Virus record (IMG/VR): IMGVR_UViG_3300002225_000004
Length of the DNA stretch: 64,000 bases
Source: a virus
Direction: 5' to 3' (one strand)
Below are positions 2,128 through 54,238 of the stretch, in pieces. Below the pieces are notes generated by a model that saw only the letters and a list, made by a program, of their open reading frames with translations, did not search any database and was not told the origin of the DNA. The stretch's first letter is position 1; each line of letters opens with the position of its first letter. The position numbers and the translations under genes were made by a program.

Positions 2128-3640
2128 AAAGAAGTATCAGAAGAAGGAACCTGTAACTAGGGTGCCTTTCAAGCTGAGCCATGCGGCTAGCGATGACCAG
2201 TTGGCAATTAAAGATTGCTGGCTCAACGATTTAGATAATATCTTTATCCCGGCAGTAGCAGGGTCAGGTAAGTCAAGCACGCTTGCATTCCTGATGGCGT
2301 GTGCCGCCAATGTGGTCGGTGCATACATCGCATTCAACAAGGACATCGTTACGGAAATGGAACCTAAGTGTCCTCCGGGTGTCACAGTTAAGACCAGACA
2401 TGCCTTCGGGTATGTTGCCTTCGCTAAGAAGGGAATCCGGCTCAAGGTTGAGAAGGATAAGCTCTCGCATGCCCTTGAGAAGAATGGATACGTGGTAAGC
2501 AAGGAGGATGAGCTATCGTATGAACGATGCCAGTCTATCAAGAGGCTCATCGATCAAATGAAGAACAACTTGATTGATGTCCATGACCATGAAGGCATCG
2601 ATCGAATGTGCTACTTCTATGACATCGACATCGATTGTCTGGATGAAGTGAAGGTGAAGCTGCCTAAGATCTTCGAGCTGATCGTAAGCTTAGGCATGGA
2701 AGGGATCATCGACTTCGTTGACATGAAGTGGTTGCCTGTTCACTTGAAGTGGGAGATGAATCGTTTCCCTGTCCTGTTCCTTGATGAGTATCAAGACTCT
2801 TCAAGCTTGGACATGGCGTTTGATAAGATGCTACTTGCTCCGGGTGGTCGTGTGGTAATCGTTGGTGATGCTCGTCAATCCATCTACGGATTTGCTGGTG
2901 CTAACTGTGACTCAATCGAGATCGCAAGTCAGCAATTCCTCTCGTCTGAGTTCGCATTGAACAAGACGTTCCGCTGTTCACCTGAAGTTGTGGCTCATGC
3001 CCAACGTATCGTCCCACATATTGAAGCATGGGAAGGGACTAAGCCGGGACGTGTCGTCCGTATGTTTGAGGAGTTTGAACCTACTAGCATGGACCCTAAT
3101 GCTATGGTCCTTTGCCGAAGGAACGCTCCGCTTGTCCGTCCATGCTTCAAGGCATTGAAGGCTGGAGTGAAGGCGAACATTAAAGGAAGGGACATCGGCG
3201 CTGGATTGATTACGATTATCAACAAGCAGAATGCTGAGACTATCCCAACCATGCTTGATAAGATGGAGGACTTCTTCCATCGGGCAAAGGAACGTGTGAT
3301 GTCTCGGAAAAGAGTAAACCCAATGACGCTTGAGTTGCTGGAAGATCAACAGAGTATCATCGAAGCGTTCGCCATGGAGCCAGACATCCAGACGATCTCT
3401 CAACTGAAGTCGAAGATCAAAGAGATGTTCACTGAAGACAAGACTGGCATGGTGTTCAGTAGTGTTCACCGTAGCAAGGGACTGGAGGCAGACCACGTTG
3501 TCATCCTTGATGCTAAGCGTATCCGCCTTTCCTTCGATAAGATGACAGACGAAGCGAGAACTCAGGAAGCTAACCTTGAGTATGTCGCAATCACCAGAGC
3601 GAAGGGCAACCTTTACCTCGACCTAGCCGAAAGAAAATAA
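2120..3640 (+). CDS. SF1 (UvrD/Rep-like) helicase
   Basis: AGSGKS Walker A, DEYQD, VGDARQSIYGFAG, SVHRSKGLE, YVAITRAK. Confidence 0.92.
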   Translation: MARKKYQKKEPVTRVPFKLSHAASDDQLAIKDCWLNDLDNIFIPAVAGSGKSSTLAFLMACAANVVGAYIAFNKDIVTEMEPKCPPGVTVKTRHAFGYVAFAKKGIRLKVEKDKLSHALEKNGYVVSKEDELSYERCQSIKRLIDQMKNNLIDVHDHEGIDRMCYFYDIDIDCLDEVKVKLPKIFELIVSLGMEGIIDFVDMKWLPVHLKWEMNRFPVLFLDEYQDSSSLDMAFDKMLLAPGGRVVIVGDARQSIYGFAGANCDSIEIASQQFLSSEFALNKTFRCSPEVVAHAQRIVPHIEAWEGTKPGRVVRMFEEFEPTSMDPNAMVLCRRNAPLVRPCFKALKAGVKANIKGRDIGAGLITIINKQNAETIPTMLDKMEDFFHRAKERVMSRKRVNPMTLELLEDQQSIIEAFAMEPDIQTISQLKSKIKEMFTEDKTGMVFSSVHRSKGLEADHVVILDAKRIRLSFDKMTDEARTQEANLEYVAITRAKGNLYLDLAERK

Positions 3641-22309: not shown

Positions 22310-25300
22310 TCATCTTGTAAGACGCTTGATTAATTCAATCCTCTTCTTCTCGCGTGCCTCTATAGCTTTCGCTTGAGCTTCCGGCAGCTTCTCTTCAAGC
22401 GCTGTATCAATATCATACAGCTTATCCTCAACCTTGTCCCACTCCTTGAGGATCTTAAGCATGTCCGCTTGACCGAATCCTGCCGAACGACCTGCCAATA
22501 CCAGATCGTTCCAGTTGAATTCCTCAAGGCCAAGCACCCCATCACTAGCCTCCTTAAGTGAAGCATACCCCTGCTCCATGGTGGTTCCAGTGATACCACC
22601 AACACCCAAGTTGCTGAAGTTGGGATATGAATACGGAATATATTCAGACGCCTCCAGCAAAACCAATTGTTCAGATAACATTGCAGCTTCACCGAATCGC
22701 TTCCGATCTTTAAGGTCAGCGATCTGTGCAGACATTACATCTGCCTTGGCAGAGATCTCCTCCTTCATCAGTTCCTTGCTGTATCGATCAGGGACCATGA
22801 ACAGAAGTTTCTGAGGGATCTGCGGTCCTTGCATAAACAAGTGAAGCACTCCAAGCTCTTCTCTAAGGACAGCTTTGCCAAAGGCGGCAGGTGAGAAGTT
22901 CCTATTGGAGTATCTGTAGAGATGCTTCTTGATTGCTGTCGCTGCTTGTAGTTCAGCTTCCGCGTGCGCAACTAGAACATGGTCTCCAGTCGCCCTTGCG
23001 TCTTGCAGCTCACCTTCAATCTCCGCGATCTTTCCATCTTCATCATCATAGAGATCACGGATGAGCCCTGTGATAAGCATCGCGATACTCCCATTGATAA
23101 GGAATCTGCTCGATGTGAACATGAACGTCTGACCAAGGATGGCTCCAATCGTTTGTAGCTTTGACTTGATCTCCTCCTTATTCTCTCCAGTCTTAGCCAG
23201 CTCAATGATGTCCCGTGTTGCGAGATTCAACTGAGCGCCAAGCATGGTAACGTGTCCACTGAATGCCAGCGTGATGTTACGTGCGAATGAATACTTGGCA
23301 TCTCTGTCTGTGAATAGCTGACCACGTAGCACCTTGTTTGATGCGTTGAAGTTGCGCTCCACGTTAATGATGGCTTGCGATAGCTCAAGTCCATCTGGAT
23401 TAGCCCAGTCAACATCGGAGAGTTCCCCGATCTGACGACCCTTGACCTTCATCAAGCGAACGTATTCAGCAATAACCAGAGTCTTTGCCGTAAAGTCATC
23501 CCCTTGCCTAAGCGAGAACGTGATGACCTTTCCGGCGTCCTTGTTGAACTTCTCCAGACCCTTGACGATAGGCATTGCACGGATAGAATCCTCATCGATG
23601 ATTGGATTCTTCTTACGGTCAAGTTCTACCTCACCCATGAGTGAGCGGTTGGCAATCCACCTTGCATTCTCCGAGAAGAACTCATTCATCTTCTCACGAT
23701 TGGAAACATAATACAGCGAAGCATCCATCGCTCCACCAAGATTACCAGTCCTTGCTGTATAGTCTGAGAAGCCAGCAATACTTTGAGTGACGCCTTGATG
23801 GACTCCTGACAGAGCAACCCTAGCATACATCTCATTGAACAACTTCATGGTGGCAGACATTGCATCCAGGCTATCACCATTAAACATGGCGTTGTAGACT
23901 AGATCCTTAGCCCATGCCTCAAGTTGGTTTACCCTAGTATCAGAAGTGTGTTCACCTTTGATAAGCTTGTTGATAGGGTTTCCCTTCTTTAGCCTCTCCT
24001 TAAGGATGAACCGTTCTGCCGTAGTCTTAACAGTCATGGCAGAGATGCGCGCAGCTCTATCGAATGTGTTCTCGATATTGTTTGCGTAGTATCTTGTGCC
24101 GGGGCCAAGTGAGTCAGACCTGCGCTTCAAGTGACTCGGCCTTCCCGTCACAGACTTGCCTTGGAATTGGTTCTCGTCGAACGTATCCATCTTAGCATCG
24201 ATACTGACAGCCTCAAGCTCGCCAGTTGTCTTGGTCGCCATAGCTTCGATGACATGACGAGGGACATAGTTTGCCCACTGCTCAAATGGCTCGCCGTAGA
24301 ATCCTTCTGAGATGACTTCATTGGACAACCTTGATCTGTCAAGAATGTCGATCATCTTGTTGAGGGACGCGAGTCTTGCTTCACCCACCTTGAAGTCACC
24401 TGTTCCGATGCGTTCTTCGGCGGACTCCATCAATACATCCATAGGCGCATCGAGGTTATCCGCTTCAAGCCCAACTACCATCCGATCAAAGATAGGAATA
24501 ATATTATTTTTATGGGAGGAAACCGTCTCGCTGTCACCTTGATCCAGAGCGTTCTTATGTGACTGACGCTCGTTCTTAATGTTGCGCATGAGCGCCTTAT
24601 TGGGATCTTCACCAATGCGGAACTGAGTAAGGCGAGAGTAGATTGACATAGCTACATTGTCTGCTCCCTTCATCTCACGACCAAGCTTAGCCTCCAGTTC
24701 CTTGCGGTGCTGAATATATTCATCTACATCCTTATCGCGCATGTTCTCCGCATCGAGCATGATCTTCTGCATAAGCGGACCCATGAGATCTGCTTGAAGG
24801 AATGCGCGGGCTTGTGAGTGAGCGGACCAGCGATCAAGCTGAGTCTGCATGAGTTCTGTCAAGCGGACCAATCCATCGATAGACTTCAGGAACTTGTTCT
24901 TGTATAGGACTGGATCACGGAACTTAGACTTAAGCTCACTGAACTTCACCTTGCCGTCACGAACTCTCTGAATGTATGGGACTGTTGTCTTGTTGACGTA
25001 AGCAATCCTTCCGTCCATCAAGTTGTTCACCGCATAGAAGTGAGTGTAGAGTTCCTTACCTGTCATCTCGCCTACGTTAGCGATCTTGGTAAGGTAATCG
25101 AAGTGAGACATGACCACCTTCCTGAGATCAGGATCAATCTTACTTCCATTAATAAGCTCAAACTCTTCCACCCAATCGCTAGCAGACTTGTATTCAGATT
25201 TAATTTCCTCTACTGCTTCCGAATATTTCTTGCGCCATGCTTCTTGCTTCTTGTTTAGTCTGTTTGCTTGTGCTGCTGATCTGTTTGCTGTTGCTGTCTC

Positions 25301-28300
25301 ACGATCATTCTTCTCTGCTTGAGTCTCATTGGCAATCGCGCTATCATTAATGAACTTCTCAACCTCTTGACGATTGTCTGGATCACCCTTGAATTGGCTC
25401 ATATCAAACAGACCTGCATTAGCTGCTTTAATCTTGTTGATAGCAACCTGATCGATGAGGAACTTATACTTTACGAGCGCGTTAATTGTAGCCGCATTGC
25501 CTTCACGAAGGGCGGGATCTTTTACTTGGTTGTTCCGAGCATCATAGACATTATCAATGATCCGCATGAACTCTTTAACCGCTGTGTCTGGCAGAGCTAA
25601 GATTTCTTTAGGGTTGATCGACTTGACGATCTTCATGATCGTGGCAGTATTGCGATCTGTCTTGTCGCTAATCTTGCCCTTCCTGATTGCACGGAACTTA
25701 CGTCCAAACTCCTTGATCCCTCCGTCATTCTTGCTGTCGGGATTGATAGCATTCAGAGTCTCATTCGAGTGCATGAATGGAAGCGTATGCGATACGATGT
25801 TCTCATCGATGGCGAAGTCGATCATCGCATCGAATGCATCAGATACGTTTTGCTTCTGGATTACTCGACCGAAGCCAAACACATCCATTACCATCTGCTT
25901 GAACTTCTGCCATGCGGTAAGCTGTTGATCCGCTGCCGATGCGTGCATCATGCCACGGAAGTTCACATCAGACATTGCTGCTGCTACAAATTCATCTGCT
26001 GAAGTGAGCGCATAAGCGGCACGGATTTCTACTGCGGAAGCATTAGTTTTTTGGCGTAGTTGCTTATGGTTCATGGAGAACCACTTACTGAATGACGTAG
26101 CCTTATTTGGATTGGCCTTTTGATATTCGGCAAACTCTTGCTCGGCAAGCTCAAGAACCTCCTTCATCTTAGGGTCCGCACTTTCATAGTTGCGGACATC
26201 CTGCATCAGTCCTTCGATGTCAGCTTTAAACTTAGGATCACGGGCGATAGCATTACTGAGAACCGCGTGGGTGGATTCATGTAGAGCCATTACGGCTACG
26301 TCCGACCCGTCGAAGTTCAAAGAAATAATATTATTTACTGGATCATATGAGTTGAATGGGGATGACTGAACCTTAACCGTGTTGAGGAAATTGGCGATCT
26401 CCCTATTATTGATAGCCTTGGAGAAGAATCTTTTGAAGGGAGCGGCGATGAGATCCTTCTCGATCATCCAGTTGAATAGATCCGTTGCGTTTCTTACCGC
26501 TGTAGTAGACCCATCCTTGTTGGTGATGATTGTATCTGGTTCTGTCTGCTGGGATGGAGGTGCCGGAGCTTGACCGTCGTCTTGCAGTGCGCCGACATCA
26601 GTAGATTCCTGACCAAACCTTTCAGAGATAGGGATTAATTTTCCTTCCTCATCAGTAGGGAGAACTTCTTCGGTCTCGATTTGCTTATTGTCAAATACAA
26701 GAACAGCCGCCGCATCACTAGGATTATCCCCGCCTTCAAGCTGGCCTACCGAATCGAATCCTAGATCCTTGAGAGCATAAATAAGATCAGTTTTACTAAA
26801 GAAGTTTGCCTTGCTATCCAGTTCTTTAGTTGAAAACGGAATATCATAACCGTCAACATTCCAGTAAAGTTCATTAGGATCAGCGTCAGGGTCAAGCCTT
26901 ATTTCTTCACGGCGCTTCAACATGCTTTTCTGCATGTTCTCCCAAGTCTTCTCTTCTTTATCGAATTTTGCGCGCTCCGCGTCCGTGAATTGATAACTGA
27001 ATCCGTCGAACTCCATTGAGTAAGCATACTTGGCTATCGCATTCTCTAGTGCGGTAGTATCTTTTCCGCTAGACTTAATTGACTCTACTACATCAACCCA
27101 GTCCTTAAACTCCCAGAGCTTCAATGAGTTTCCGAGATTAAGATAAGCTTTATACAAGCCTCCTTTTACTGGTCCTTCTTTGTTGTAACTACCCGCAAAA
27201 TCCCTAGATAAAGACTCGGACTTTGAAAAGAATATAGGAACCCCAAACTTCTTAATGCCTTTGATTGCGGACCCGTGAAAGAACCCTCCTTCAAATCCTA
27301 ATGACTCAGCTATCCTGTCTTGGATTTCCTTTGCTTTTATGAGATCGTTATCAGCAATAGCTCTGTTAAATGAATTTTCAGCTAGAGTATTTGATTGTGA
27401 TTGTCCGTCTTGCAGTGCGCCCATCTCTGCCTTAACTTCATCTGCTTTCTCCTTAGATACTGGATCTCCATTCTTCTCTAAGATCTCAATATCTTTACCG
27501 TCAAAGGCCACGAAGTTGCTATACCCTTCGCCGCGCATACGACTCATTCCGTCGAGGAACTTAATTCCTTTAATGCCATGCTTGAGAAGCAACTCGCTGC
27601 GCTCTTTATCTGATTTTAGTCCATCCCTCTTTGTGGTTCCCGTGTAGAATATGCTGTTATATATTGACGATCCTTTTGTGGAGTTTTCTATTCCATTTTC
27701 AACGGATGGAATCCATACTCCGGCCTCCTTTAATTTTTCAATTACTTCTGGATGTTGATCTTCTGGTCTCTTATCCCAATCAAGAAGCTCGTTATCCTCT
27801 GCTTTGAAATCAATCTTATAGAGGTTGCCTTTAAAGTCGTCACCTTTTCGGTCTGGATTTAAAGTGATGTCACCTGACTTAACCAGATCAGCAAGCTTGT
27901 GTAGATATTTAGACGTTGTGTTTCTTCTGATTGCTGCGGCAGTGGCTCGTTTGCTTTGTCCGGGAGCGAACGCTTTGGATATATTTAGCAAGTCAGATTG
28001 GCTAACCATTGGCATTGAAGCCATCGCCTTATTAGCCTTATCTGTAAAAATAAGATTATTTTTACCTCTAGCTTGTTGTCCAATTTTCTCTTGGTAGAAT
28101 TTACCTACTGATTTGTTCTCCGCGAAGTAAAGCCCCCATCCATATGCCTGCACTCCTTCACCTGTTCCGACGTAATCAGTATCGAATCCTCCTTCAATAT
28201 CAGCACCGGTCCCGTGGTAAGCAAGAGCATAGTCATTAATCTGGCGAAGCATAAGCTTCTTCGCTCGGTTGAGCGCACCTTGCGGAATGGTTGAGCGTAG

Positions 28301-31300
28301 GTTCTGCTTTACTGCTGCAAGTTTCTCATCGATGTTCTCATCTGTAACCGTATCAGAGAATGATACAATCTGATTCCACTTAGTTTCAGTTTCATTATTA
28401 GAGCGCCCTTCAATATTAGCAATTCCATCCTGGTCGAATCCAATCTCAGCCATGCCGGGAATGTCCCTAGCGGCAGACTCGAATGCCATAAGTTGCTTAG
28501 CGAGATTTTCGGCAACCACGTATCGTCCCATGCCATAAGCTATGGCGATGTTTCGCGCAATGGCTTGCTGTGGAGTGTATGCTTTAAGTGATGAATACAT
28601 ATCCGCATATAGCAAGCCGGACAGCTCACGATATTTCTTTGCGGTCTTAAACTCTTCCTGAATCTCCTTCTCTCTAGCAAGGGTTGGGATTGTGTCCTGA
28701 TCTATCTCAAGCCCACGTTCCTCCGCCCGCTTTAAAATAATATTATTTAATAAGTCGGTATCAAGCTCCTCTTGAAGATCATGGAATCCCAGATTAGCAT
28801 TGATCTTCTGGCGAATCTCCTTGATGTCATTACTGGAGCTTGCATGGTTATACAGATCTCCGAGGTATTCCATCGCCTCATCATACATGCCTTTGCCGTA
28901 TGAAAAAATCTTCGCCATGCCTGTATTAGTATTCTCAGCAATGGTTGAGATAGTCGCGAATGATTCTGGATGTCCTCGCTGTATATTGCGGGAGTCCTGA
29001 AGTGTAGCCTGAGCTTGCGATGATACGCGGGGATCAATGGTGAGTGCGTCTAGGGTTTCTCCTACAATTTCTTCCCTTGTTTCTTTTGAGACTGGCGTGT
29101 CATTTTTTTCTAGTATCTCAATGTCCGCGCCGTCGAAGACTACAAAGTTATATGTCCCTTCTCTATTTCTTCTACTCTGCCCATCTAGGAACTTAATTCC
29201 TTTAATTCCTATATCAAGCAATGCTAAGCTTCTTGCTTTATTGTCTTCACTGCTAAATAAAGAGCCATCATTGATAAAGTTATAAATTTGTTGTCCTGTG
29301 TAAGGGTGATCCACTTCCGATTTAAGTCCTAATCCAAGCTTGACAAGTTTCTTTTTTACTTCTGGATGCTGATCTTTAAAATCCTTATCCCAATCGAGAA
29401 GCTCATTATCCTCTGCTTTGAAGTCTACTTTGTAAAGATTGCCTTCGTGATTAAACTCTTTAATCGAAGGTATGTTCTCCAAATTAAAGTATGACATCCA
29501 TGCAAGTCTCTGTGTTGCATCTTCATAATAATCTTCACTAACCTTTCCTTCGCGCTCAAGCCCAGGACCTTCTATTGCGTCTTTCTGAGCCCAGCCATGA
29601 ACAGTGTCATATCCAAACTGAGCGATGTCGTTTAGGAGTTCGTCAAACCTTAAATCACCTTCGATTAAGCCTGCTCCCACTGTCTCCATAAACTTATTGC
29701 GACCATATTTCCTTGAAAGAGTTTCGCGATAATCTTTGGCTACATCTTTTGCTGTAGCGAAGTAGAGACCCCATCCGAACACCTGTAGCCCTTCACCAGT
29801 TCCCATGAACTTAGTGCTGAACCCTCCAAGGATCTCATGCGGTGTTCCGTGGAATGCAAGTGCGTCTAGTGTTTCGGACTCGGTATCAAGATCATCATCA
29901 GTAATATCAATTCCGAATAGATCCTTGGATGATGCTTCTGCTGCTTCTAGCGCTGCTTTAATCTTTGGATCTTCTTCTGCCGCTTGCTCGCGATCTGGAT
30001 TGATCGGTGGCGTAGTTGGCGAGGTAACTGGAGTGACGGCAGGTTGGACTGCGGGCTGCGCTACTGGTGTAGGTGCGCCAGCGGCTAACCTTGTTGCTGC
30101 TCGACTCCTAGATAGCGGTGAGTTGACATCTGGGTTCAGCTCCGATGTAGTTTGCTCACGACCGAATGACTGAGGGGTTCCTGCCGTTGGATCGAATCCA
30201 AATAACTTTGCGAACTGCTCATCCAATTTCTTGTTAGCTTGAAACTTGGATGGAAGGAATTGAGCAAAGTAATCACGAACACCTTTATAGACATCGCCTA
30301 CCCAGTTCTTCAGCTTGCCAAAGACTTCGGCTTCAACCTCATTCTTGGGCTCTGCTCTAGCCATCCAATCAAGAGCATTATTAGCAAGCCTCTGGTCAGA
30401 CTCAACTCCAAGTTCGTTTGTCTGTAAGTTCTCACGGATAACTTCCATGCCGTCTGCGCCAAGGATGTCTTCCATGATTCCGGTCTGACGAAGCGCGCTC
30501 ATCACCCCAGCGAATAGAGATCCTACTTCTCCGTTCTGAGTGAACGCAATATTAGTATTGCCGTCTACATCCTGATAAGTAGTAGCGCCTTGGTTGTCCT
30601 TACCGGTGATGAACTTGCCTACGATGTCTTGAAATGGGATGAGTGAATCCGCGCCTTCAAAGTTAAGCTTCTTGAAGAAATCATTAGCAACTCTGCCTGC
30701 TCCTGAATCAGCCCACTTATTAGCTAGGATGTCTAGGATGCCAAGAATCTCGGTAGAGCGTTCAGGGTCTAATGCGCCATCATCACCTAGACCGTCGATC
30801 TCATCTTTGACTCTAGCTCTGTCTGGGATAAGTTTATTAACTTTATCTTGTGTCCCCTCATTTGGATTGGTGAGAACGTCAGACAATGCCTGAGCTTCTG
30901 CGCTTTCTGATAATGGGAATAGCGATGGCTGCTCTGGTCTAGCTTGGTTAGCCGTTCCTTCCCCTGATTGCGCGGCAGCTTGACGAGCTAGATTTTCGGG
31001 TAATACTTCTGCTGGTTTAGTTGATGCACCAAACGAGTCGGGGAATAAAGCATCTGGATTGTCACCTTCTACTACTGTATTCGCTGCTTCATAAGCTTCC
31101 TTGTAGCGACCTTCGTTGACAAGCTTGCTTACGCTTTCGTTTACTTCTGCTTGAGTGAGTGAAGAACGCTTGCCAGAAGTATCATCAAGTGCCGCTTGGG
31201 TCTTACCTAAAATAATATTATTTTTTGTAGTGAATCCCTCCGGTCCTTTGCGGATTCCTCCAATCTCTGTAGCTGAGGCAACACCACCGCCAAGGACTGC

Positions 31301-32356
31301 GCCAAGCGCGAACGATTCAAACTGAGATGTAGCATCGGGAATGAACGACTCTTCTTCAGTCATCAGGTATGATCCATATCCAGACGACAAATCTCCCATC
31401 CACTCAGATGCACCCTCACCAAATCCATCACGCATCACTCCGAAAGCTTTCTTGCGAAGGCTTTCGTCGTTCATGATCTGAGAGATTGTCTTACGTTTAA
31501 CCGAGTCAGCACCCTTAAGCCCACGAATAAACTTCTTAGGAAGGAAGCGACCAGCAATAAGTCTATCACCAATCATTTCAATAGCAGCGCCAGGAATTGC
31601 ACCTACGCCTGCATCGTTAGCTTTCTCCTGAGACATGCCCATATCGATAGCCTGATTGTAAGCGTCCTGATATTTACGGGTGGATGTTCCTGCAAGCAAG
31701 AATCCTGTTCCTCCTACTGGTGATCCGGTTACGATAGATCCCGCTACGAATACAGCGGTAGACGATCCTAGATCTCCCAATCCTGTAGCAAGCTTTGCCG
31801 TGAAGTCGTCGTCATAGTCTGGGTTATCCGCCACCCAGTTACGAACGTCCTGAGCTTTCTCATCCGCACCTACGAACCCAAGGATGCCTGCGGTGAATCC
31901 CTCAAAGACTCTCTTGAACTTATCCGATGCCCACCCTGTGTCTCCACCGATAGCTTTGCGTAATGCGTGATCTGTTACTGCGTTAAGATAGAATCCGCGA
32001 TCCTCCTTGTTGACGGGATCTTGCGCCGCGAGATCAGGAATGGTTCCACGGAAGTCTTCCAGTAGCTTCTCCTTTACATCCTCGCTTTTGATTGCCCAGT
32101 CTTGATCCTCCCAAGGAAGCGGAGCATCGATCTCTGAACGCATAGGAATATACCTTCCTTGCCCGGTGGCGCGGAGGTGCTTCTTATTGATAGACTCAGA
32201 GATGCGATTTACCGCCTCCTCCTCGAAAGGACGCTCCTTTAGGTATTCCGATCTAAGCCCTTGGAGAACAGCTTGTTGCCTTTCTTGCGGAAGACTGTTA
32301 TAAGCATCAGTCCTTACAGCCGCATTGACTGAATCTTGGTATTCTACTAAGTTCAT
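22310..32356 (-). CDS. Giant polyvalent virion or injected protein (3348 aa) with three ART-like modules and an HExxH zincin module
   Basis: FHGT..GTGEG.Q.FGWGLYFA, YHGT..GTGEG.QAYGWGLYFA, FFHGS..IFFS, ALHESTH; position at the end of the structural operon. Confidence 0.85.
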   Translation of the reverse strand: MNLVEYQDSVNAAVRTDAYNSLPQERQQAVLQGLRSEYLKERPFEEEAVNRISESINKKHLRATGQGRYIPMRSEIDAPLPWEDQDWAIKSEDVKEKLLEDFRGTIPDLAAQDPVNKEDRGFYLNAVTDHALRKAIGGDTGWASDKFKRVFEGFTAGILGFVGADEKAQDVRNWVADNPDYDDDFTAKLATGLGDLGSSTAVFVAGSIVTGSPVGGTGFLLAGTSTRKYQDAYNQAIDMGMSQEKANDAGVGAIPGAAIEMIGDRLIAGRFLPKKFIRGLKGADSVKRKTISQIMNDESLRKKAFGVMRDGFGEGASEWMGDLSSGYGSYLMTEEESFIPDATSQFESFALGAVLGGGVASATEIGGIRKGPEGFTTKNNIILGKTQAALDDTSGKRSSLTQAEVNESVSKLVNEGRYKEAYEAANTVVEGDNPDALFPDSFGASTKPAEVLPENLARQAAAQSGEGTANQARPEQPSLFPLSESAEAQALSDVLTNPNEGTQDKVNKLIPDRARVKDEIDGLGDDGALDPERSTEILGILDILANKWADSGAGRVANDFFKKLNFEGADSLIPFQDIVGKFITGKDNQGATTYQDVDGNTNIAFTQNGEVGSLFAGVMSALRQTGIMEDILGADGMEVIRENLQTNELGVESDQRLANNALDWMARAEPKNEVEAEVFGKLKNWVGDVYKGVRDYFAQFLPSKFQANKKLDEQFAKLFGFDPTAGTPQSFGREQTTSELNPDVNSPLSRSRAATRLAAGAPTPVAQPAVQPAVTPVTSPTTPPINPDREQAAEEDPKIKAALEAAEASSKDLFGIDITDDDLDTESETLDALAFHGTPHEILGGFSTKFMGTGEGLQVFGWGLYFATAKDVAKDYRETLSRKYGRNKFMETVGAGLIEGDLRFDELLNDIAQFGYDTVHGWAQKDAIEGPGLEREGKVSEDYYEDATQRLAWMSYFNLENIPSIKEFNHEGNLYKVDFKAEDNELLDWDKDFKDQHPEVKKKLVKLGLGLKSEVDHPYTGQQIYNFINDGSLFSSEDNKARSLALLDIGIKGIKFLDGQSRRNREGTYNFVVFDGADIEILEKNDTPVSKETREEIVGETLDALTIDPRVSSQAQATLQDSRNIQRGHPESFATISTIAENTNTGMAKIFSYGKGMYDEAMEYLGDLYNHASSSNDIKEIRQKINANLGFHDLQEELDTDLLNNIILKRAEERGLEIDQDTIPTLAREKEIQEEFKTAKKYRELSGLLYADMYSSLKAYTPQQAIARNIAIAYGMGRYVVAENLAKQLMAFESAARDIPGMAEIGFDQDGIANIEGRSNNETETKWNQIVSFSDTVTDENIDEKLAAVKQNLRSTIPQGALNRAKKLMLRQINDYALAYHGTGADIEGGFDTDYVGTGEGVQAYGWGLYFAENKSVGKFYQEKIGQQARGKNNLIFTDKANKAMASMPMVSQSDLLNISKAFAPGQSKRATAAAIRRNTTSKYLHKLADLVKSGDITLNPDRKGDDFKGNLYKIDFKAEDNELLDWDKRPEDQHPEVIEKLKEAGVWIPSVENGIENSTKGSSIYNSIFYTGTTKRDGLKSDKERSELLLKHGIKGIKFLDGMSRMRGEGYSNFVAFDGKDIEILEKNGDPVSKEKADEVKAEMGALQDGQSQSNTLAENSFNRAIADNDLIKAKEIQDRIAESLGFEGGFFHGSAIKGIKKFGVPIFFSKSESLSRDFAGSYNKEGPVKGGLYKAYLNLGNSLKLWEFKDWVDVVESIKSSGKDTTALENAIAKYAYSMEFDGFSYQFTDAERAKFDKEEKTWENMQKSMLKRREEIRLDPDADPNELYWNVDGYDIPFSTKELDSKANFFSKTDLIYALKDLGFDSVGQLEGGDNPSDAAAVLVFDNKQIETEEVLPTDEEGKLIPISERFGQESTDVGALQDDGQAPAPPSQQTEPDTIITNKDGSTTAVRNATDLFNWMIEKDLIAAPFKRFFSKAINNREIANFLNTVKVQSSPFNSYDPVNNIISLNFDGSDVAVMALHESTHAVLSNAIARDPKFKADIEGLMQDVRNYESADPKMKEVLELAEQEFAEYQKANPNKATSFSKWFSMNHKQLRQKTNASAVEIRAAYALTSADEFVAAAMSDVNFRGMMHASAADQQLTAWQKFKQMVMDVFGFGRVIQKQNVSDAFDAMIDFAIDENIVSHTLPFMHSNETLNAINPDSKNDGGIKEFGRKFRAIRKGKISDKTDRNTATIMKIVKSINPKEILALPDTAVKEFMRIIDNVYDARNNQVKDPALREGNAATINALVKYKFLIDQVAINKIKAANAGLFDMSQFKGDPDNRQEVEKFINDSAIANETQAEKNDRETATANRSAAQANRLNKKQEAWRKKYSEAVEEIKSEYKSASDWVEEFELINGSKIDPDLRKVVMSHFDYLTKIANVGEMTGKELYTHFYAVNNLMDGRIAYVNKTTVPYIQRVRDGKVKFSELKSKFRDPVLYKNKFLKSIDGLVRLTELMQTQLDRWSAHSQARAFLQADLMGPLMQKIMLDAENMRDKDVDEYIQHRKELEAKLGREMKGADNVAMSIYSRLTQFRIGEDPNKALMRNIKNERQSHKNALDQGDSETVSSHKNNIIPIFDRMVVGLEADNLDAPMDVLMESAEERIGTGDFKVGEARLASLNKMIDILDRSRLSNEVISEGFYGEPFEQWANYVPRHVIEAMATKTTGELEAVSIDAKMDTFDENQFQGKSVTGRPSHLKRRSDSLGPGTRYYANNIENTFDRAARISAMTVKTTAERFILKERLKKGNPINKLIKGEHTSDTRVNQLEAWAKDLVYNAMFNGDSLDAMSATMKLFNEMYARVALSGVHQGVTQSIAGFSDYTARTGNLGGAMDASLYYVSNREKMNEFFSENARWIANRSLMGEVELDRKKNPIIDEDSIRAMPIVKGLEKFNKDAGKVITFSLRQGDDFTAKTLVIAEYVRLMKVKGRQIGELSDVDWANPDGLELSQAIINVERNFNASNKVLRGQLFTDRDAKYSFARNITLAFSGHVTMLGAQLNLATRDIIELAKTGENKEEIKSKLQTIGAILGQTFMFTSSRFLINGSIAMLITGLIRDLYDDEDGKIAEIEGELQDARATGDHVLVAHAEAELQAATAIKKHLYRYSNRNFSPAAFGKAVLREELGVLHLFMQGPQIPQKLLFMVPDRYSKELMKEEISAKADVMSAQIADLKDRKRFGEAAMLSEQLVLLEASEYIPYSYPNFSNLGVGGITGTTMEQGYASLKEASDGVLGLEEFNWNDLVLAGRSAGFGQADMLKILKEWDKVEDKLYDIDTALEEKLPEAQAKAIEAREKKRIELIKRLTR

Positions 32357-39659: not shown

Positions 39660-39968
39660 TTAGTCGATCATGTTTAACTTCTCTTTGATTGATTCCAAGT
39701 CTGATAATGCTAATCCCATCTGAAAATGAAGTTCTCTTATCTCGTTAGAGATATGATTAAATCTTTCATCTGATACATCCTTAGACATGAACTTACTTTC
39801 GTCTACTGTTTGTCTTGCGTGGTGAGCCTCTTCGTCTTTAAGGTGTTTTGAAAAACTCTCCAGTGTTTCCTCTTTGAACTTCTCGTTATCTGATTGGAAC
39901 ATCAACAGCATGTTGCCATTGAGGACCAACAATAAAACCGCTAAAATGTATGGGGCAAATGAATTCAT
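39660..39968 (-). CDS. Membrane-anchored coiled-coil protein (lysis module)
   Basis: N-terminal TM helix and heptads. Confidence 0.5.
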   Translation of the reverse strand: MNSFAPYILAVLLLVLNGNMLLMFQSDNEKFKEETLESFSKHLKDEEAHHARQTVDESKFMSKDVSDERFNHISNEIRELHFQMGLALSDLESIKEKLNMID

Positions 39969-40669
39969 TTAATATAAGTATGGATTGCCTGCGCATATAG
40001 ATCCGCTAGATCAACCACCCCCTCATCAGTCATGTATTTATTTACCTCACTTTGATTGCTTCCGAAGAACGGTTCGCAAATGACTGCCGGGCATTTTGTC
40101 TTCTTGCAAAACAACGCCCCTCTGCTCTTGTTGTTCAAGGGTTTAACACCCCTGTTTAAAGCTGATGGGAAGATTGTCTTGTGGGTCTCTGATAGCGCAA
40201 GGGCTAGGCTTTTTGCTTTTTCGCTAGAGTGCCAATAAAGATATTCGTATCCTAACGCTTCACTGTTATACGAGTTAAAGTGAAGCTCGATTGCTAATGT
40301 GATATTCCGCTCATCGAGGTAGCGACTCAGCCATTCCATTGCTGCGCCATAAGATGAATGCTTATATTCATCCACGATGATAGAACTGATCCCAAGAGAA
40401 TCTAGGTTTTCCTTTACCTTTACAGCTACCCTCTTATTAAAATCTTCTTCATAAATACCGCTGACTGACACCGCCCCCTTATCCCCTCCTCTTGAGTGAC
40501 CAATGCATATGGCTATGCTTTGTTTGGAATGTCTAATGCTTTGGTGGCACGGCTTAGACTTGGGGATTTTTTCGTCAATAAGCCCAAGCAACAAATCAGA
40601 AACATCTGAAGTGATGTTGGGCGAATCAACTACTTGTTGACGGGCGGTTGCCAGCAGCGAAGTATTCAT
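39965..40669 (-). CDS. Endolysin, N-acetylmuramoyl-L-alanine amidase (Amidase_3)
   Basis: IGHS...E..N..VA, IELHFNS, G.E, PAVICEPFF. Confidence 0.9.
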   Translation of the reverse strand: MNTSLLATARQQVVDSPNITSDVSDLLLGLIDEKIPKSKPCHQSIRHSKQSIAICIGHSRGGDKGAVSVSGIYEEDFNKRVAVKVKENLDSLGISSIIVDEYKHSSYGAAMEWLSRYLDERNITLAIELHFNSYNSEALGYEYLYWHSSEKAKSLALALSETHKTIFPSALNRGVKPLNNKSRGALFCKKTKCPAVICEPFFGSNQSEVNKYMTDEGVVDLADLYAQAIHTYIK

Positions 40670-52809: not shown

Positions 52810-54084
52810 TTACGGACTGCCTGAGACTCCTACTTCCAAAAGCGTTGATACGGAAGCGTCGGCATCGGACAAAAGGATCTGCTGATTGAGGTGCCATCCA
52901 TCGAGAGATCCGTGGTAAGCTCCATTTACTACGGTCGTAAAGCAGGAGACAAGAACTAGATCTCCTCCAATGACCATCATCACGGGCATTCCTGAATCGC
53001 CAGTCTTGATTAAGACCCCTGCCCACGGCCAATTCTCAACAAGGAATGGTGGAGCTGAAGCGCCTTGACCAACACTAATGTATCGCGTGTATCCTAAGTT
53101 GTCCTCGAAAGGATTTCCATTAATCGTTCCATGATACACAAATGTTTGATAAGTCCCATCATTGTTCCCGATCTGCATAACAGATGCTTTGAAATACTGA
53201 TCGAAGGATACCGCATAGCTACCAATCCAAGTCTTGATCCCGCGAGACCCATAAGGAGTAGCGGGCTTGTCAGCTAGATACTCCTTGTCTTGGACGAACC
53301 ATGACTGAGGAGCAATTGACATAGGTTTCACGGTGGAGGGAAGCGGCGAATCTAGGGTGCAAACAAGCTCATCGCCAATTCCGTCCTCTCCGATTATTCC
53401 TCCATCTCTTGGGCAAACACCAATAACTGTCCTGATGTGAATCGTTCCATCAGACCCTCTGAACTTAAACTTTGTAACGCCCTTTGTATAGAAGAATGAA
53501 GGGAAATGCCTGATGCCAATAACATGCTGCGGTGTAATTAGAGCGCCGCAATTAGCAACATAATAATTAACACCACCCGGCACGCTTGTCACTCCGACTG
53601 GAATTCCTGAAGCGTCAATCCCAGCCATCCAGCAATTAGGATTAAGAACAAACGAATCATTAAGAAGCGGACCATGGCCCGTCTGTCCACCAATATCAGA
53701 ATAAAGCTCAAGCTCAGTATTGCCGGAATTCAAGAATGGCAATAGCTCATTCAGTGATGCATCCTTAATCGATGTGTCCGATGAGGATGAAGATGAGGAA
53801 GAAGATGAGGATGAGATAGACGAAGAAGAAGATGGCGAATTGCTGGACGATGAAGAAGATGAGGAGTCTGAACTGGTAGCTCTATTTCTCGCATATCTAC
53901 ATCCATCATTGCGGAGGTAATATCCTCCATCAGACCTCAAATAATAACTAGGACAGCAATAAGTATATGCCTCAATAAGCTCATCAAATTTTACATTGAT
54001 CGCTTCCATAGAATCCTTGAGGCACTCCATCCTCTGGAGGAGCAACGCATTGGACTCTTCGTAATCATTATTAACCTTTGACAT
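52810..54084 (-). CDS. Poly-Ser linker protein with C-terminal trypsin-like serine protease domain
   Basis: GALITPQHVIGIRH, GDELVCTL, TGDSGMP; start at MSKVNN. Confidence 0.7.
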   Translation of the reverse strand: MSKVNNDYEESNALLLQRMECLKDSMEAINVKFDELIEAYTYCCPSYYLRSDGGYYLRNDGCRYARNRATSSDSSSSSSSSNSPSSSSSISSSSSSSSSSSSDTSIKDASLNELLPFLNSGNTELELYSDIGGQTGHGPLLNDSFVLNPNCWMAGIDASGIPVGVTSVPGGVNYYVANCGALITPQHVIGIRHFPSFFYTKGVTKFKFRGSDGTIHIRTVIGVCPRDGGIIGEDGIGDELVCTLDSPLPSTVKPMSIAPQSWFVQDKEYLADKPATPYGSRGIKTWIGSYAVSFDQYFKASVMQIGNNDGTYQTFVYHGTINGNPFEDNLGYTRYISVGQGASAPPFLVENWPWAGVLIKTGDSGMPVMMVIGGDLVLVSCFTTVVNGAYHGSLDGWHLNQQILLSDADASVSTLLEVGVSGSP

Positions 54085-54085
54085 A

Positions 54086-54238
54086 TTACGGAATGCTAGA
54101 TGATGATGGTGATTCGCAGCAATATGAATACGCTTCAATCAGCTCATCAAATTGGCTGTCAATGATTTCCATGATGTCCTTCAAGCACTCCATGCGCTCT
54201 AGGATTAGGTCGTCTCCTTCTTGTGTCAGCTCAGGCAT
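54086..54238 (-). CDS. Small paralog of the N-terminal coil-Cys module (50 aa)
   Basis: ERMECLKDIME..FDELIEAYSYCC matches the next gene; TAATG overlap. Confidence 0.6.
   Translation of the reverse strand: MPELTQEGDDLILERMECLKDIMEIIDSQFDELIEAYSYCCESPSSSSIP

Follow-up and report, generated by a model that had tools for sequence, protein, structure and literature searches.

Short Ala-Leu/Ile peptides at the cargo-domain boundaries of a giant phage polyvalent protein

A virus contig in IMG/VR (record IMGVR_UViG_3300002225_000004) carries a giant gene whose product contains a run of enzyme-like domains, and similar short peptides ending in Ala-Leu or Ala-Ile stand between them. The question that this locus raises is whether the peptides are processing sites in an ejected polyprotein, working parts of a chain that stays intact, recombination sites in the DNA that happen to be translated, or a product of duplication and chance. 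We examined the window (the whole 64,000-nucleotide stretch of this record), orthologs of the giant protein and other phage proteins that share its domains. All coordinates given below refer to features on the minus strand.

The giant gene and its variable cargo slot

The open reading frame at 22310..32356 is uninterrupted and encodes 3348 amino acids (P0001). It is the final gene of a leftward late (virion) operon, convergent with a rightward replication arm, and its synteny is kept at the ortholog locus L001. Phage genes in the window encode helicases, a tail protein and an amidase, with a weak match to TerL, and contigs carrying the giant gene or its orthologs are 70.9 to 73.7 kb long. The late-operon position, the synteny, hydrophobic segments in the product and the match of one of its folds to an ejection protein of phage A4 give indirect support to a virion or ejection role. 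Most likely, virions of a ~71-kb phage contain the protein and eject it along with their DNA.

In 16 orthologs, all from ~71-kb phages, the scaffolds are retained, whereas the cargo domains between them vary in number, kind and order. We are highly confident that the architecture consists of an N-terminal and a ~1140-residue C-terminal scaffold module around a variable cargo slot. The N-terminal module (aa 1 to 450, 31007..32356) is kept in all 16 orthologs and contains Gly/Ala-rich hydrophobic segments at about aa 196 to 225 and 349 to 370. It is followed by a variable N-proximal region with a Pro-rich low-complexity tract (aa 451 to 832, 29861..31006), common only to P0122, P0131 and P0132. 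The C-terminal module (aa 2204 to 3348, 22313..25747) is 32 to 54% identical in 15 orthologs and 26% identical over 74% of its length in the 16th, P0135; it has a single hydrophobic segment near aa 3077 to 3105, and neither the PDB nor the set of deposited phages yielded a detectable relative. The slot holds five enzyme-like domains of ~275 residues each: three with an ADP-ribosyltransferase (ART) fold, two of which are old intragenic duplicates, one rare domain and one zincin-like domain. The first-pass annotation had suggested that such cassettes are exchanged as units, and this is what the 16 orthologs show between their conserved terminal scaffolds. A homolog of the zincin-like domain is present in 13 of them; in six, it directly adjoins the C-terminal module.

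Cargo domains and junction peptides

The first cassette, C1 (aa 833 to 1104, 29045..29860), had been labeled ART-like, and it does have an ART fold, with VIA-align Z scores of 7 to 8 to PARPs and diphtheria toxin (6.5 to 8.1 across tankyrase, PARP1-3, diphtheria toxin, MbcT and ParT). Its type is a widespread polyvalent-protein module of ~230 to 320 aa that runs from A-[FY]-HGT to ..NGxPV. C3 (aa 1378 to 1647, 27416..28225), also labeled ART-like, is its sister paralog (41% identity end to end, SH-aLRT 99), which is why the two are equal in length. The H-Y-[E/D] clade of ADP-ribosyltransferases is marked by HG[ST] in the first strand, an aromatic Y motif and, in a late strand, an acidic residue. 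The corresponding AFHGT, GWGLYFA and NFVVFD motifs are kept in C1, C3 and 60 aligned homologs, placing both domains in this clade as putative enzymes. C4 (aa 1648 to 1923, 26588..27415) had been called divergent ART-like; the ART assignment stands, and the domain proves to be the canonical ART-PolyVal (PF18760) of this protein rather than a divergent one. It has two helices at its N terminus and an insertion of ~100 aa. The whole protein scores 36.7 bits against PF18760, passing the curated cut-off of 31.2 only by summing three stretches, of which C4 scores best.

C2 (aa 1105 to 1377, 28226..29044) remains, as first described, without an assigned fold: it is a discrete domain (core aa ~1117 to 1365) for which 1.84 billion representative proteins include only seven relatives, among them a stand-alone protein of 313 aa. 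For C5 (aa 1924 to 2203, 25748..26587; core aa ~1939 to 2194), the HExxH zincin label is tentatively supported. Zincin metallopeptidases have their HExxH helix after a small beta-sheet, with a third zinc ligand downstream. C5 has HESTH at aa 2026 to 2030; in the model of its zincin-like fold, this motif falls in a confidently predicted helix that follows three strands, and its H, E and H do not vary among seven orthologs. Structural similarity is modest: residues 2128 to 2367 of N4 gp50 match at Z 6.1 over 170 aligned residues, anthrax lethal factor matches at Z ~5, and the third zinc ligand was not located. The domain lacks a Pfam match, and its nearest ESM Atlas clusters include LPD23 and LPD1 members, which serves as a lead only.

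Translation of the reading frame places the six junction peptides where they had been reported. The Ala of each AL or AI is at aa 832, 1104, 1377, 1647, 1923 and 2203, and the resulting spacing of 272, 273, 270, 276 and 280 aa agrees with the intervals of 816 to 840 bp given earlier. In order, and with the residues that follow, the peptides read ETLDAL-AF (J0, aa 828 to 833, 29858..29875), ETLDAL-TI (J1, aa 1100 to 1105, 29042..29059), NDYAL-AY (J2, aa 1374 to 1378, 28223..28237), EMGAL-QD (J3, aa 1644 to 1648, 27413..27427), DVGAL-QD (J4, aa 1920 to 1924, 26585..26599) and ETLNAI-NP (J5, aa 2199 to 2204, 25745..25762). All six coincide with domain boundaries as judged by homolog alignment, which spans cassette residues 2 to 260 of C1 and C3, 12 to 260 of C2 and 19 to 274 of C4, and by two AlphaFold models. 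In the models, J1 closes a helix predicted with low confidence, after which comes a stretch with a pLDDT of <50, and J3, the positional homolog of J1, J4 and J5 lie in linkers with a pLDDT of <50. The AL of J0 and J2 is modeled as the start of ART beta-strand 1 and not as a free linker: J0 opens the strand of C1 (ALAFHGT), and J2, which is similar to the ..NYSIG and ..MYAL peptides upstream of C1-type domains in relatives, directly precedes AYHGT of C3. The conserved core of each cargo domain ends 5 to 15 residues before an [E/D]-x-(L)-[D/G/N]-A-[L/I] peptide, which is followed by a polar flexible spacer or, where the next domain is a C1-type ART, abuts its first strand.

Ala and Leu are the two commonest residues of the 3348-aa protein, and the bare A[LI] dipeptide occurs in it 50 times. 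The equal spacing of this dipeptide was not significant, with a six-site chain arising in 8.5% of shuffles when the spacing window was left free (P ~ 0.085). Furthermore, the cargo blocks of orthologs range from ~125 to 630 aa, the C4 type measures 160 to 375 aa elsewhere, and motif-to-motif spacing in relatives is 68 to 525 aa. The proposal that the cassettes are standardized in size is therefore not sustained. An extended motif, E.L[DN]A[LI] or [ED].GAL, which was defined after the fact, has six copies in the protein, at five of the six junctions and at aa 525. The last copy, DDGAL|DP at aa 525 to 531 in the variable N-proximal region, is a possible seventh junction. The narrower junction pattern had five matches versus 0.2 in shuffles, while the rest of the window (~16,000 aa) contains the extended motif once, with 0.86 expected.

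The earlier observation that two pairs of junctions share DNA was reproduced, with TGCGTCTAG found at 29045 and 29861 and TCTTGCAGTGCGCC at 26580 and 27408. J0 and J1 are identical at 16 of 18 nucleotides and differ at two synonymous sites. J3 and J4 share an exact match of 16 nucleotides, the third-longest exact repeat within the gene, in which both copies use the same five codons for GALQD (P ~ 0.005 given this gene's codon usage).

Comparison with known ejected proteins

Multiple unrelated domains, the PF18760 signature and a phage late-gene context identify the 3348-aa product as a polyvalent protein, a class described in phages and conjugative elements by Iyer, Burroughs, Anand, de Souza, and Aravind (2017, PMC5512222). 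It shares with that class a giant chain of unrelated effectors that includes ART-PolyVal and a zincin-like domain, a late virion context and a mosaic turnover of domains between relatives. Unlike polyvalent proteins as published, it has a short peptide at every cargo boundary, and its cargo slot lies between scaffold modules specific to the ~71-kb phage family. No text on a junction or boundary peptide was found in Iyer et al. 2017.

In layout, the protein resembles the N4 virion RNA polymerase gp50 (3500 aa; PDB 9pnr/9pnt). The two are similar in length, come from genomes of ~70 kb and are encoded by the last gene of a leftward late operon, in the same orientation and convergent with the replication genes; both have a zincin-like domain after a central module, followed by ~1130 to 1145 aa. 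Structural similarity to gp50 is confined to C5, and in an hhalign comparison of C5 with N4 the pairing was limited to the HELxHA motif and the strand of the active site (probability 8%, with a low-diversity N4 profile). The N- and C-terminal modules gave no tblastn, hmmsearch or hhalign match to N4, and we claim no scaffold homology. A Pfam scan of the whole protein (E ≤ 1) returned PF18760 and a chance match but no N4-type RNA polymerase domain, and RNA polymerase families were also missing from the central regions of 13 orthologs scanned; N4-like proteins carry PF21769, PF21894, PF21624 and PF21867. The protein was therefore rejected as an N4-type virion RNA polymerase, for which the central T7-like single-subunit polymerase domain is required.

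The fold of C1 is best matched by a pre-ejectosome protein of cyanopodophage A4 (PDB 9k3a chain B, probably gp27). This large ejection protein has been resolved within a podophage capsid (PMC12002296). C1 aligns with its residues 1418 to 1604 over 146 residues (Z 10.7, rmsd 4.2), and no sequence-level similarity was detected between them. The A4 paper makes no mention of an ART domain or of processing. The A4 phage differs in its genome type and its set of ejection proteins.

Phage T4 packages an ADP-ribosyltransferase, Alt, in its head, processes it at a short motif and injects it with the DNA, where it acts on host targets. Alt and the T4 internal proteins carry a capsid-targeting sequence that the prohead protease gp21 cuts at L/I-x-E. 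Unlike the giant chain here, the T4 proteins are small and individually encoded, each with its targeting peptide at the N terminus. Glu is the last residue of the motif at which they are cut, and the junctions end in Ala-Leu/Ile. The late genes of the window include no recognizable prohead protease of the T4 type, and on both grounds processing of the T4 type was rejected. In the polyproteins of picornaviruses (3C) and potyviruses (NIa), lineage-specific consensus peptides stand at every boundary and covary with the enzyme. These are an analogy only. The protein here is a predicted virion component of a DNA phage, and its cleavage is conjectural.

Junction peptides in relatives and the case for processing

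Related short peptides bracket the C1-type ART in many other phage polyvalent proteins. In 75 representative C1-type ART domains (<50% identical), the upstream peptide matched the downstream peptide of its own protein better than those of other proteins (permutation P < 1e−4), with a mean best 6-mer score of 15.3 versus 11.7 and the own partner ranking first in 14 of the 75. Matched upstream and downstream pairs include ASFSIL/ASFSIL, ASFSIG/ASFSIG, NYSIGA/NYSIGA, LGAASP/LGAASP and DQMFAL/DEMFAL. The bracketing peptide recurs at further junctions in relatives, also beside unrelated domains. Within the ~71-kb family, the equivalent of J5 reads ELYNIP, ELYSIP, ERYNVP, NINYSP or NISFLP, and a degenerate, loosely matched motif precedes the C-terminal module in at least 10 of the 16 orthologs, whatever domain lies upstream.

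In the genes of four relatives, the bracketing copies differ at 4 to 6 of 6 codons, with most synonymous sites changed. This indicates selection on the peptide and not on DNA repeats, and swapping at the junction DNA is not supported as a general mechanism. We consider it very improbable that the junctions are in essence short direct repeats that drive in-frame cassette exchange, the peptide being merely translated. C4 is flanked by the 16-nucleotide exact repeat and C1 by the 16/18-nucleotide one, whole cassettes differ among orthologs, and GC3 is lower in the ART cassettes (0.36 to 0.39) than in the scaffold (0.41 to 0.53), all as expected of such exchange. However, repeats of 15 to 18 nucleotides are short for homologous exchange, J0 and J1 differ at two synonymous sites, and the closest ortholog is only 48 to 53% identical, leaving no near relative to reveal a recent swap. 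It is likewise improbable that history and chance suffice, with duplication yielding J0/J2 and J1/J3, J4 being the normal ART-PolyVal tail, the rest coincidence and the equal spacing a matter of five ordinary-sized domains in an Ala- and Leu-rich protein. The paralogy of C1 and C3, the residue composition and the nonsignificant dipeptide spacing fit this account; domain cores of 240 to 260 aa are unremarkable, and an exact 6-mer repeat unrelated to the junctions, DDFTAK, occurs in the same protein. Against it stand the excess of the narrower pattern over shuffles, the identity of J0 and J1 despite cores of C1 and C3 that are only 41% identical, and the bracketing seen in many independent lineages with differing peptide sequences.

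A function for the peptide in a protein that is never cut and acts as one chain is possible but doubtful. As a structural or recognition element, it could be a strand or helix cap that closes the domains, a docking tag for a chaperone or for the portal and ejection machinery, or a signal for ordered unfolding and refolding during tail passage. The AL of J0 is modeled inside beta-strand 1, and J4 aligns with a conserved ART-PolyVal tail, RF-x6-[DN]-I-x-[FY]-S-[ILV], that looks internal to the domain. N4 gp50, which bears a zincin, was reported to be packaged unprocessed (PMC5512222), and the A4 ejection protein with its ART-like domain (gp27) is a single chain in the capsid model; both count against processing, as does the absence of motif enrichment in the other proteins of this phage, where a general head-protease site might be expected to recur. 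About half of the motif-bearing relatives have no zincin. A purely structural role, however, does not need identical, lineage-covarying peptides on both sides of a domain, the models predict flexibility and no packing against a domain at J1, J3, J4 and J5, and the motif also adjoins domains that are unrelated to one another.

The reading that we tentatively prefer, at slightly under an even chance, is that the junction peptides mark places where an ejected polyprotein is recognized or processed. The scissile bond would probably lie between the small residue and Leu/Ile, so that P1' would be hydrophobic, a preference of many zinc metallopeptidases. Processing is favored by the presence of a zincin-like domain in cis, C5, and Iyer et al. 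2017 (PMC5512222) proposed, in general terms, that zincin domains might set other domains free through autoproteolysis. Of 15 relatives that bear the motif, only 7 have an HExxH, which excludes a cis zincin as the general protease; cutting would be done either by the zincin-like domain of the protein itself or in trans by another protease. The modular anatomy of the protein, the turnover of cargo among its orthologs and the protein-level conservation and lineage-specific covariation of the junction peptide are direct observations. Matched, lineage-specific peptides that bracket the ART domain and are kept at the protein level lend comparative support to the A-L peptide as a cut site, and cutting there would free effectors of ~30 kDa in the manner of a viral polyprotein.

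Genomic setting of the giant gene

The giant protein is encoded by one open frame of 3348 codons (22310-32356, minus strand), the last gene of a leftward operon that starts at ~60.9 kb and contains a tail protein, glycosyltransferases, a weak terminase match, and an amidase. The amidase gene (Amidase_3, N-acetylmuramoyl-L-alanine amidase; 39965-40669, minus strand) lies in the middle of the late structural operon, and PHROGs and Pfam recognized almost none of the neighboring late genes. The operon converges head-on with a rightward replication arm (helicases, DHH phosphoesterase). A tRNA search of the window found none, and short plus-strand ORFs inside the giant gene (25557-25928 and 29805-30173) are without support. 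Four copies of an A/T-only palindrome, AATAATATTATT, lie inside the giant ORF at window positions 24497, 26324, 28736, and 31211 and are the source of several of its longest exact DNA repeats. A 442-aa ORF at 52810-54138 (minus strand) has a GDSG motif toward its C terminus and a poly-Ser stretch of ~40 residues. It was weighed as a candidate trans protease and set aside: neither Pfam nor PHROGs places it in a family, and no link to the giant protein was found.

No near relative was found among 50,697 deposited phages by megablast of the cassette DNA or by tblastn of the conserved N-terminal (aa 1-450) and C-terminal (aa 2204-3348) modules. The "Poorviridae" phage vB_PunP_Y3 (PMC11654794), which carries its polymerase and ADP-ribosyltransferase (ART) on separate ORFs, was rejected as a relative; with no match in the deposited phage records by either method, it was treated as unrelated. 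The giant protein's own cluster has a single member, with contigs of up to 71,031 bp, and an IMG/VR search for related loci with the C-terminal alignment confirmed none.

Cargo domains and their turnover

Five cargo cassettes (C1 to C5) lie between the two modules. C1 (aa 833-1104) and C3 (aa 1378-1647) align end to end with 41% identity and group as sisters (SH-aLRT 99) in a tree that also includes 94 homologous domains of other proteins. The two arose by an old duplication within the gene, from which they inherited their equal length. The C1-type module is present in more than 100 other giant proteins, where homology always spans A-[FY]-HGT (cassette residue 2) to ..NGxPV (about residue 260). 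Four of these proteins (P0002, P0010, P0037, and P0059) carry two such modules in one chain, and intragenic duplication of this module is therefore recurrent. An AlphaFold model of C1 (60 sequences, mean pLDDT of 77) has an ART fold, matching tankyrase, PARP1-3, diphtheria toxin, MbcT, and ParT with Z scores of 6.5 to 8.1 (VIA-align, used for all fold assignments). Its best match is residues 1418-1604 of a cyanophage A4 pre-ejectosome chain (9k3a_B; Z of 10.7, rmsd of 4.2, 146 residues aligned).

The other cassettes are of different kinds. C2 (aa 1105-1377) is a discrete and very rare domain with seven relatives among 1.84 billion representative proteins, all covering cassette residues ~12-260 and one of them a stand-alone protein of 313 aa; the ESM Atlas returned no informative neighbor. 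C4 (aa 1648-1923) contains the best-scoring stretch of a Pfam ART-PolyVal match and has a ~100-aa insertion; elsewhere, domains of this type measure 160-375 aa. In our alignment of ART-PolyVal homologs, strong conservation continues past the last matched position of the Pfam model into a C-terminal extension of the PF18760-type domain, which reads QIKSADPVTYD..G.VIPLSQRF and then, six residues on, [DN]-I-x-[FY]-S-[ILV]. C5 (aa 1924-2203) folds confidently (pLDDT of 80-97 over aa ~1939-2194), with HESTH on a helix after three strands in the model, and best matches N4 gp50 residues 2128-2367 (Z of 6.1) and the anthrax lethal factor catalytic domain (Z of ~5). Foldseek found no match in the PDB at E<=0.001 for either model. 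Third-position GC content is 0.36, 0.39, and 0.39 in C1, C3, and C4, compared with 0.52 in C5, 0.53 in the C-terminal module, and 0.41-0.42 in the N-terminal part. Such a split would be consistent with ART cassettes that have had a history of their own and a C5 long tied to the C-terminal module.

A search with the C-terminal 1145 aa identified 16 orthologous proteins of 2213-4191 aa, on contigs of up to 70.9-73.7 kb with syntenic neighboring late genes. All 16 have the N-terminal ~450 aa and the C-terminal module, which is 32-54% identical in 15 of them and 26% identical over 74% of its length in the most distant, P0135. A profile of the C-terminal module had no match among PDB sequences. Gly/Ala-rich hydrophobic segments (Kyte-Doolittle 19-residue mean of >1.2) occur in these scaffold modules at aa ~196-225, 349-370, and 3077-3105 (window ~31680-31770, ~31245-31310, and ~23040-23125, minus strand) and could be membrane-active parts of an ejection protein.

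Between the two modules, the orthologs differ in how many domains they have, of what kinds, and in what order. Thirteen of the 16 have a zincin-like domain, which stands directly before the C-terminal module in six; in P0129, the order is zincin-like domain, C2-type domain, C-terminal module. P0123, P0125, and P0118 have one C1-type ART each, and other orthologs have ATP-grasp-like or other blocks, including an ATP-grasp-like block of ~275 aa that is common to eight (P0118 and P0124-P0130) and absent from the window's giant protein. No RNA polymerase domain was found in the 13 orthologs scanned. The blocks that orthologs have in common span about 125-630 aa. Therefore, the cassette-wise exchange of cargo that the first-pass annotation had proposed is real, and the standard cassette size that it had also proposed is not supported.

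A boundary peptide at domain junctions

The six peptides that had been marked as cassette junctions (J0 to J5: ETLDAL, ETLDAL, NDYAL, EMGAL, DVGAL, and ETLNAI) were recovered at the same positions, with the A of AL or AI at aa 832, 1104, 1377, 1647, 1923, and 2203 and intervals of 272, 273, 270, 276, and 280 aa. The two DNA strings reported as shared between junction pairs are also present, and the J3/J4 match of 16 exact bases is the third-longest exact repeat in the giant gene. The A[LI] dipeptide by itself proves nothing: A and L are the two commonest residues of the giant protein, A[LI] occurs 50 times, and in 8.5% of shuffled sequences six such dipeptides fall into a chain of near-constant spacing when that spacing is left free. 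A longer motif (E.L[DN]A[LI] or [ED].GAL) has six copies, comprising five of the six junctions and an extra one at aa 525, and a narrower junction pattern has five matches versus 0.2 in shuffles. In the other ~16,000 aa that the window encodes, the longer motif occurs once (0.86 expected). The candidate seventh site (DDGAL, aa 525-531) is only weakly conserved in the three orthologs that have this region. J1, J3, J4, and J5 fall in model stretches of low confidence or pLDDT below 50. At J0, AL forms the first two residues of ART beta-strand 1 (ALAFHGT), and by homology AL at J2 likewise begins this strand. This placement of the peptides in the models indicates that the junctions coincide with domain boundaries.

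In other proteins, C1-type domains are flanked by a short peptide just upstream that is repeated 0-20 residues downstream and varies from lineage to lineage. Upstream/downstream pairs include ASFSIL/ASFSIL, ASFSIG/ASFSIG, NYSIGA/NYSIGA, LGAASP/LGAASP, TSFAIR/TSFSIR, DQMFAL/DEMFAL, and INFLPA/IQFMPA. Among 75 representatives whose ART cores share <50% identity, a protein's own upstream and downstream flanks were more alike than flanks taken from different proteins: best 6-mer BLOSUM scores averaged 15.3 for own pairs versus 11.7, and the own-pair mean was reached in 0 of 10,000 permutations; the own partner ranked first in 14 of the 75. In several proteins the peptide also recurs along the chain (four NYSIG copies in each of P0046 and P0039, five LGAASP-like copies in P0038, and four D.M.AL copies in P0065) at spacings of 68-525 aa. 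In the four genes for which DNA was fetched, the copies differ at 4-6 of 6 codons (e.g., GCA TCG TTT TCA ATT GGG versus GCT TCA TTC TCG ATC GGC). Peptide identity has therefore been kept by selection on the peptide and not by recent duplication or gene conversion.

A strict regular expression for the junction motif gave no match in the orthologs, a misleading negative, since degenerate forms came to light once the sequences were anchored where the conserved C-terminal module begins. The junction before this module reads ELYNIP, ELYSIP, ERYNVP, NINYSP, or NISFLP, or ETLNAINP in the window's protein, in at least 10 of the 16 orthologs, whatever domain precedes it. The ART-PolyVal tail RF-x6-[DN]-I-x-[FY]-S-[ILV] is also conserved, and J4 (DVGAL) aligns to it. 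The A-L peptides are the local version of a boundary signal that is widespread and has the form (hydrophobic or aromatic)-(small residue)-(Ile/Leu/Val).

Possible roles of the boundary peptide

It is quite possible, if somewhat short of probable, that the junction peptides are processing sites. A small residue followed by Ile or Leu (..D/G-A-L here) would be the cut site for a zincin in cis or a protease in trans, and cleavage after packaging or ejection would release effectors of ~30 kDa. If the chain were cut after the small residue, Leu/Ile would become a hydrophobic P1' residue, which suits many zinc metallopeptidases, and a zincin-like domain lies in cis to the peptides in the giant protein. 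Their position at every boundary, flexible surroundings, conservation at the protein level, and lineage-specific covariation give them the look of viral polyprotein cleavage sites, and this reading is plausible and has gained support from the comparison among proteins. The release of other domains by zincin domains through autoproteolysis was proposed in general terms by Iyer et al. 2017 (PMC5512222), in a text that describes no boundary peptide.

An uncut structural or recognition signal is a possible but distinctly less likely role. Of 15 relatives that bear the motif, only 7 have an HExxH; at J0 and J2, AL is modeled as part of a strand; the ART-like domain of A4 belongs to an ejection protein modeled as one chain; and N4 gp50 is reported to be packaged uncut (PMC5512222). 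That the peptides reflect history plus chance is improbable, given as counterweights to the abundance of A[LI] the excess of the narrower pattern over shuffles and the permutation result for the flanks. A role as DNA-level recombination sites, which the first-pass annotation had offered as the route of cassette swapping, is likewise improbable: the codon differences between bracketing copies count against it, and the one thing here that still speaks for it is the 16-nt J3/J4 identity, in which all five GALQD codons are the same (P~0.005 under this gene's codon usage).

The giant protein is by definition a polyvalent protein. Its layout resembles that of N4 gp50 in genome size (~70 kb), gene position and orientation, length, a zincin-like domain after the central module, and about 1140 aa after that domain; the RNA polymerase domain that defines N4 gp50 was not detected in it. 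No sequence similarity to N4 gp50 was detected outside the zincin motif by hhalign with a single sequence or a 12-sequence profile. The giant protein is not treated as a member of the N4 gp50 family. From its gene position, hydrophobic Gly-rich segments, and A4 fold match, we infer that it is packaged in the virion; a phi24B preprint describes a 2811-aa polyvalent protein that is abundant in virions and proposed as an ejection protein. We consider it conceivable but rather unlikely that both parts of a broader proposal hold, namely, that polyvalent proteins are true polyproteins cut at lineage-specific junction peptides and that an N4 gp50-type scaffold has had its RNA polymerase slot refilled by ADP-ribosyltransferases. 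In that case, host takeover in this phage family would work through modification of the host machinery, in contrast to the injected polymerase of N4.

Phages and conjugative elements commonly encode giant polyvalent proteins, and their first description already raised the question of how unrelated enzymes strung on one chain of 300-400 kDa are put to use. The junction peptide gives a concrete handle on this question, as its reading as a processing site predicts exact neo-termini. As a boundary mark, it offers a rule by which thousands of uncharacterized proteins can be divided into their cargo domains; if it is a true cut site, it would constitute a natural release system for injected effectors. 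A conserved two-part scaffold with a freely exchanged central slot bears on the evolution of virion-delivered host takeover.
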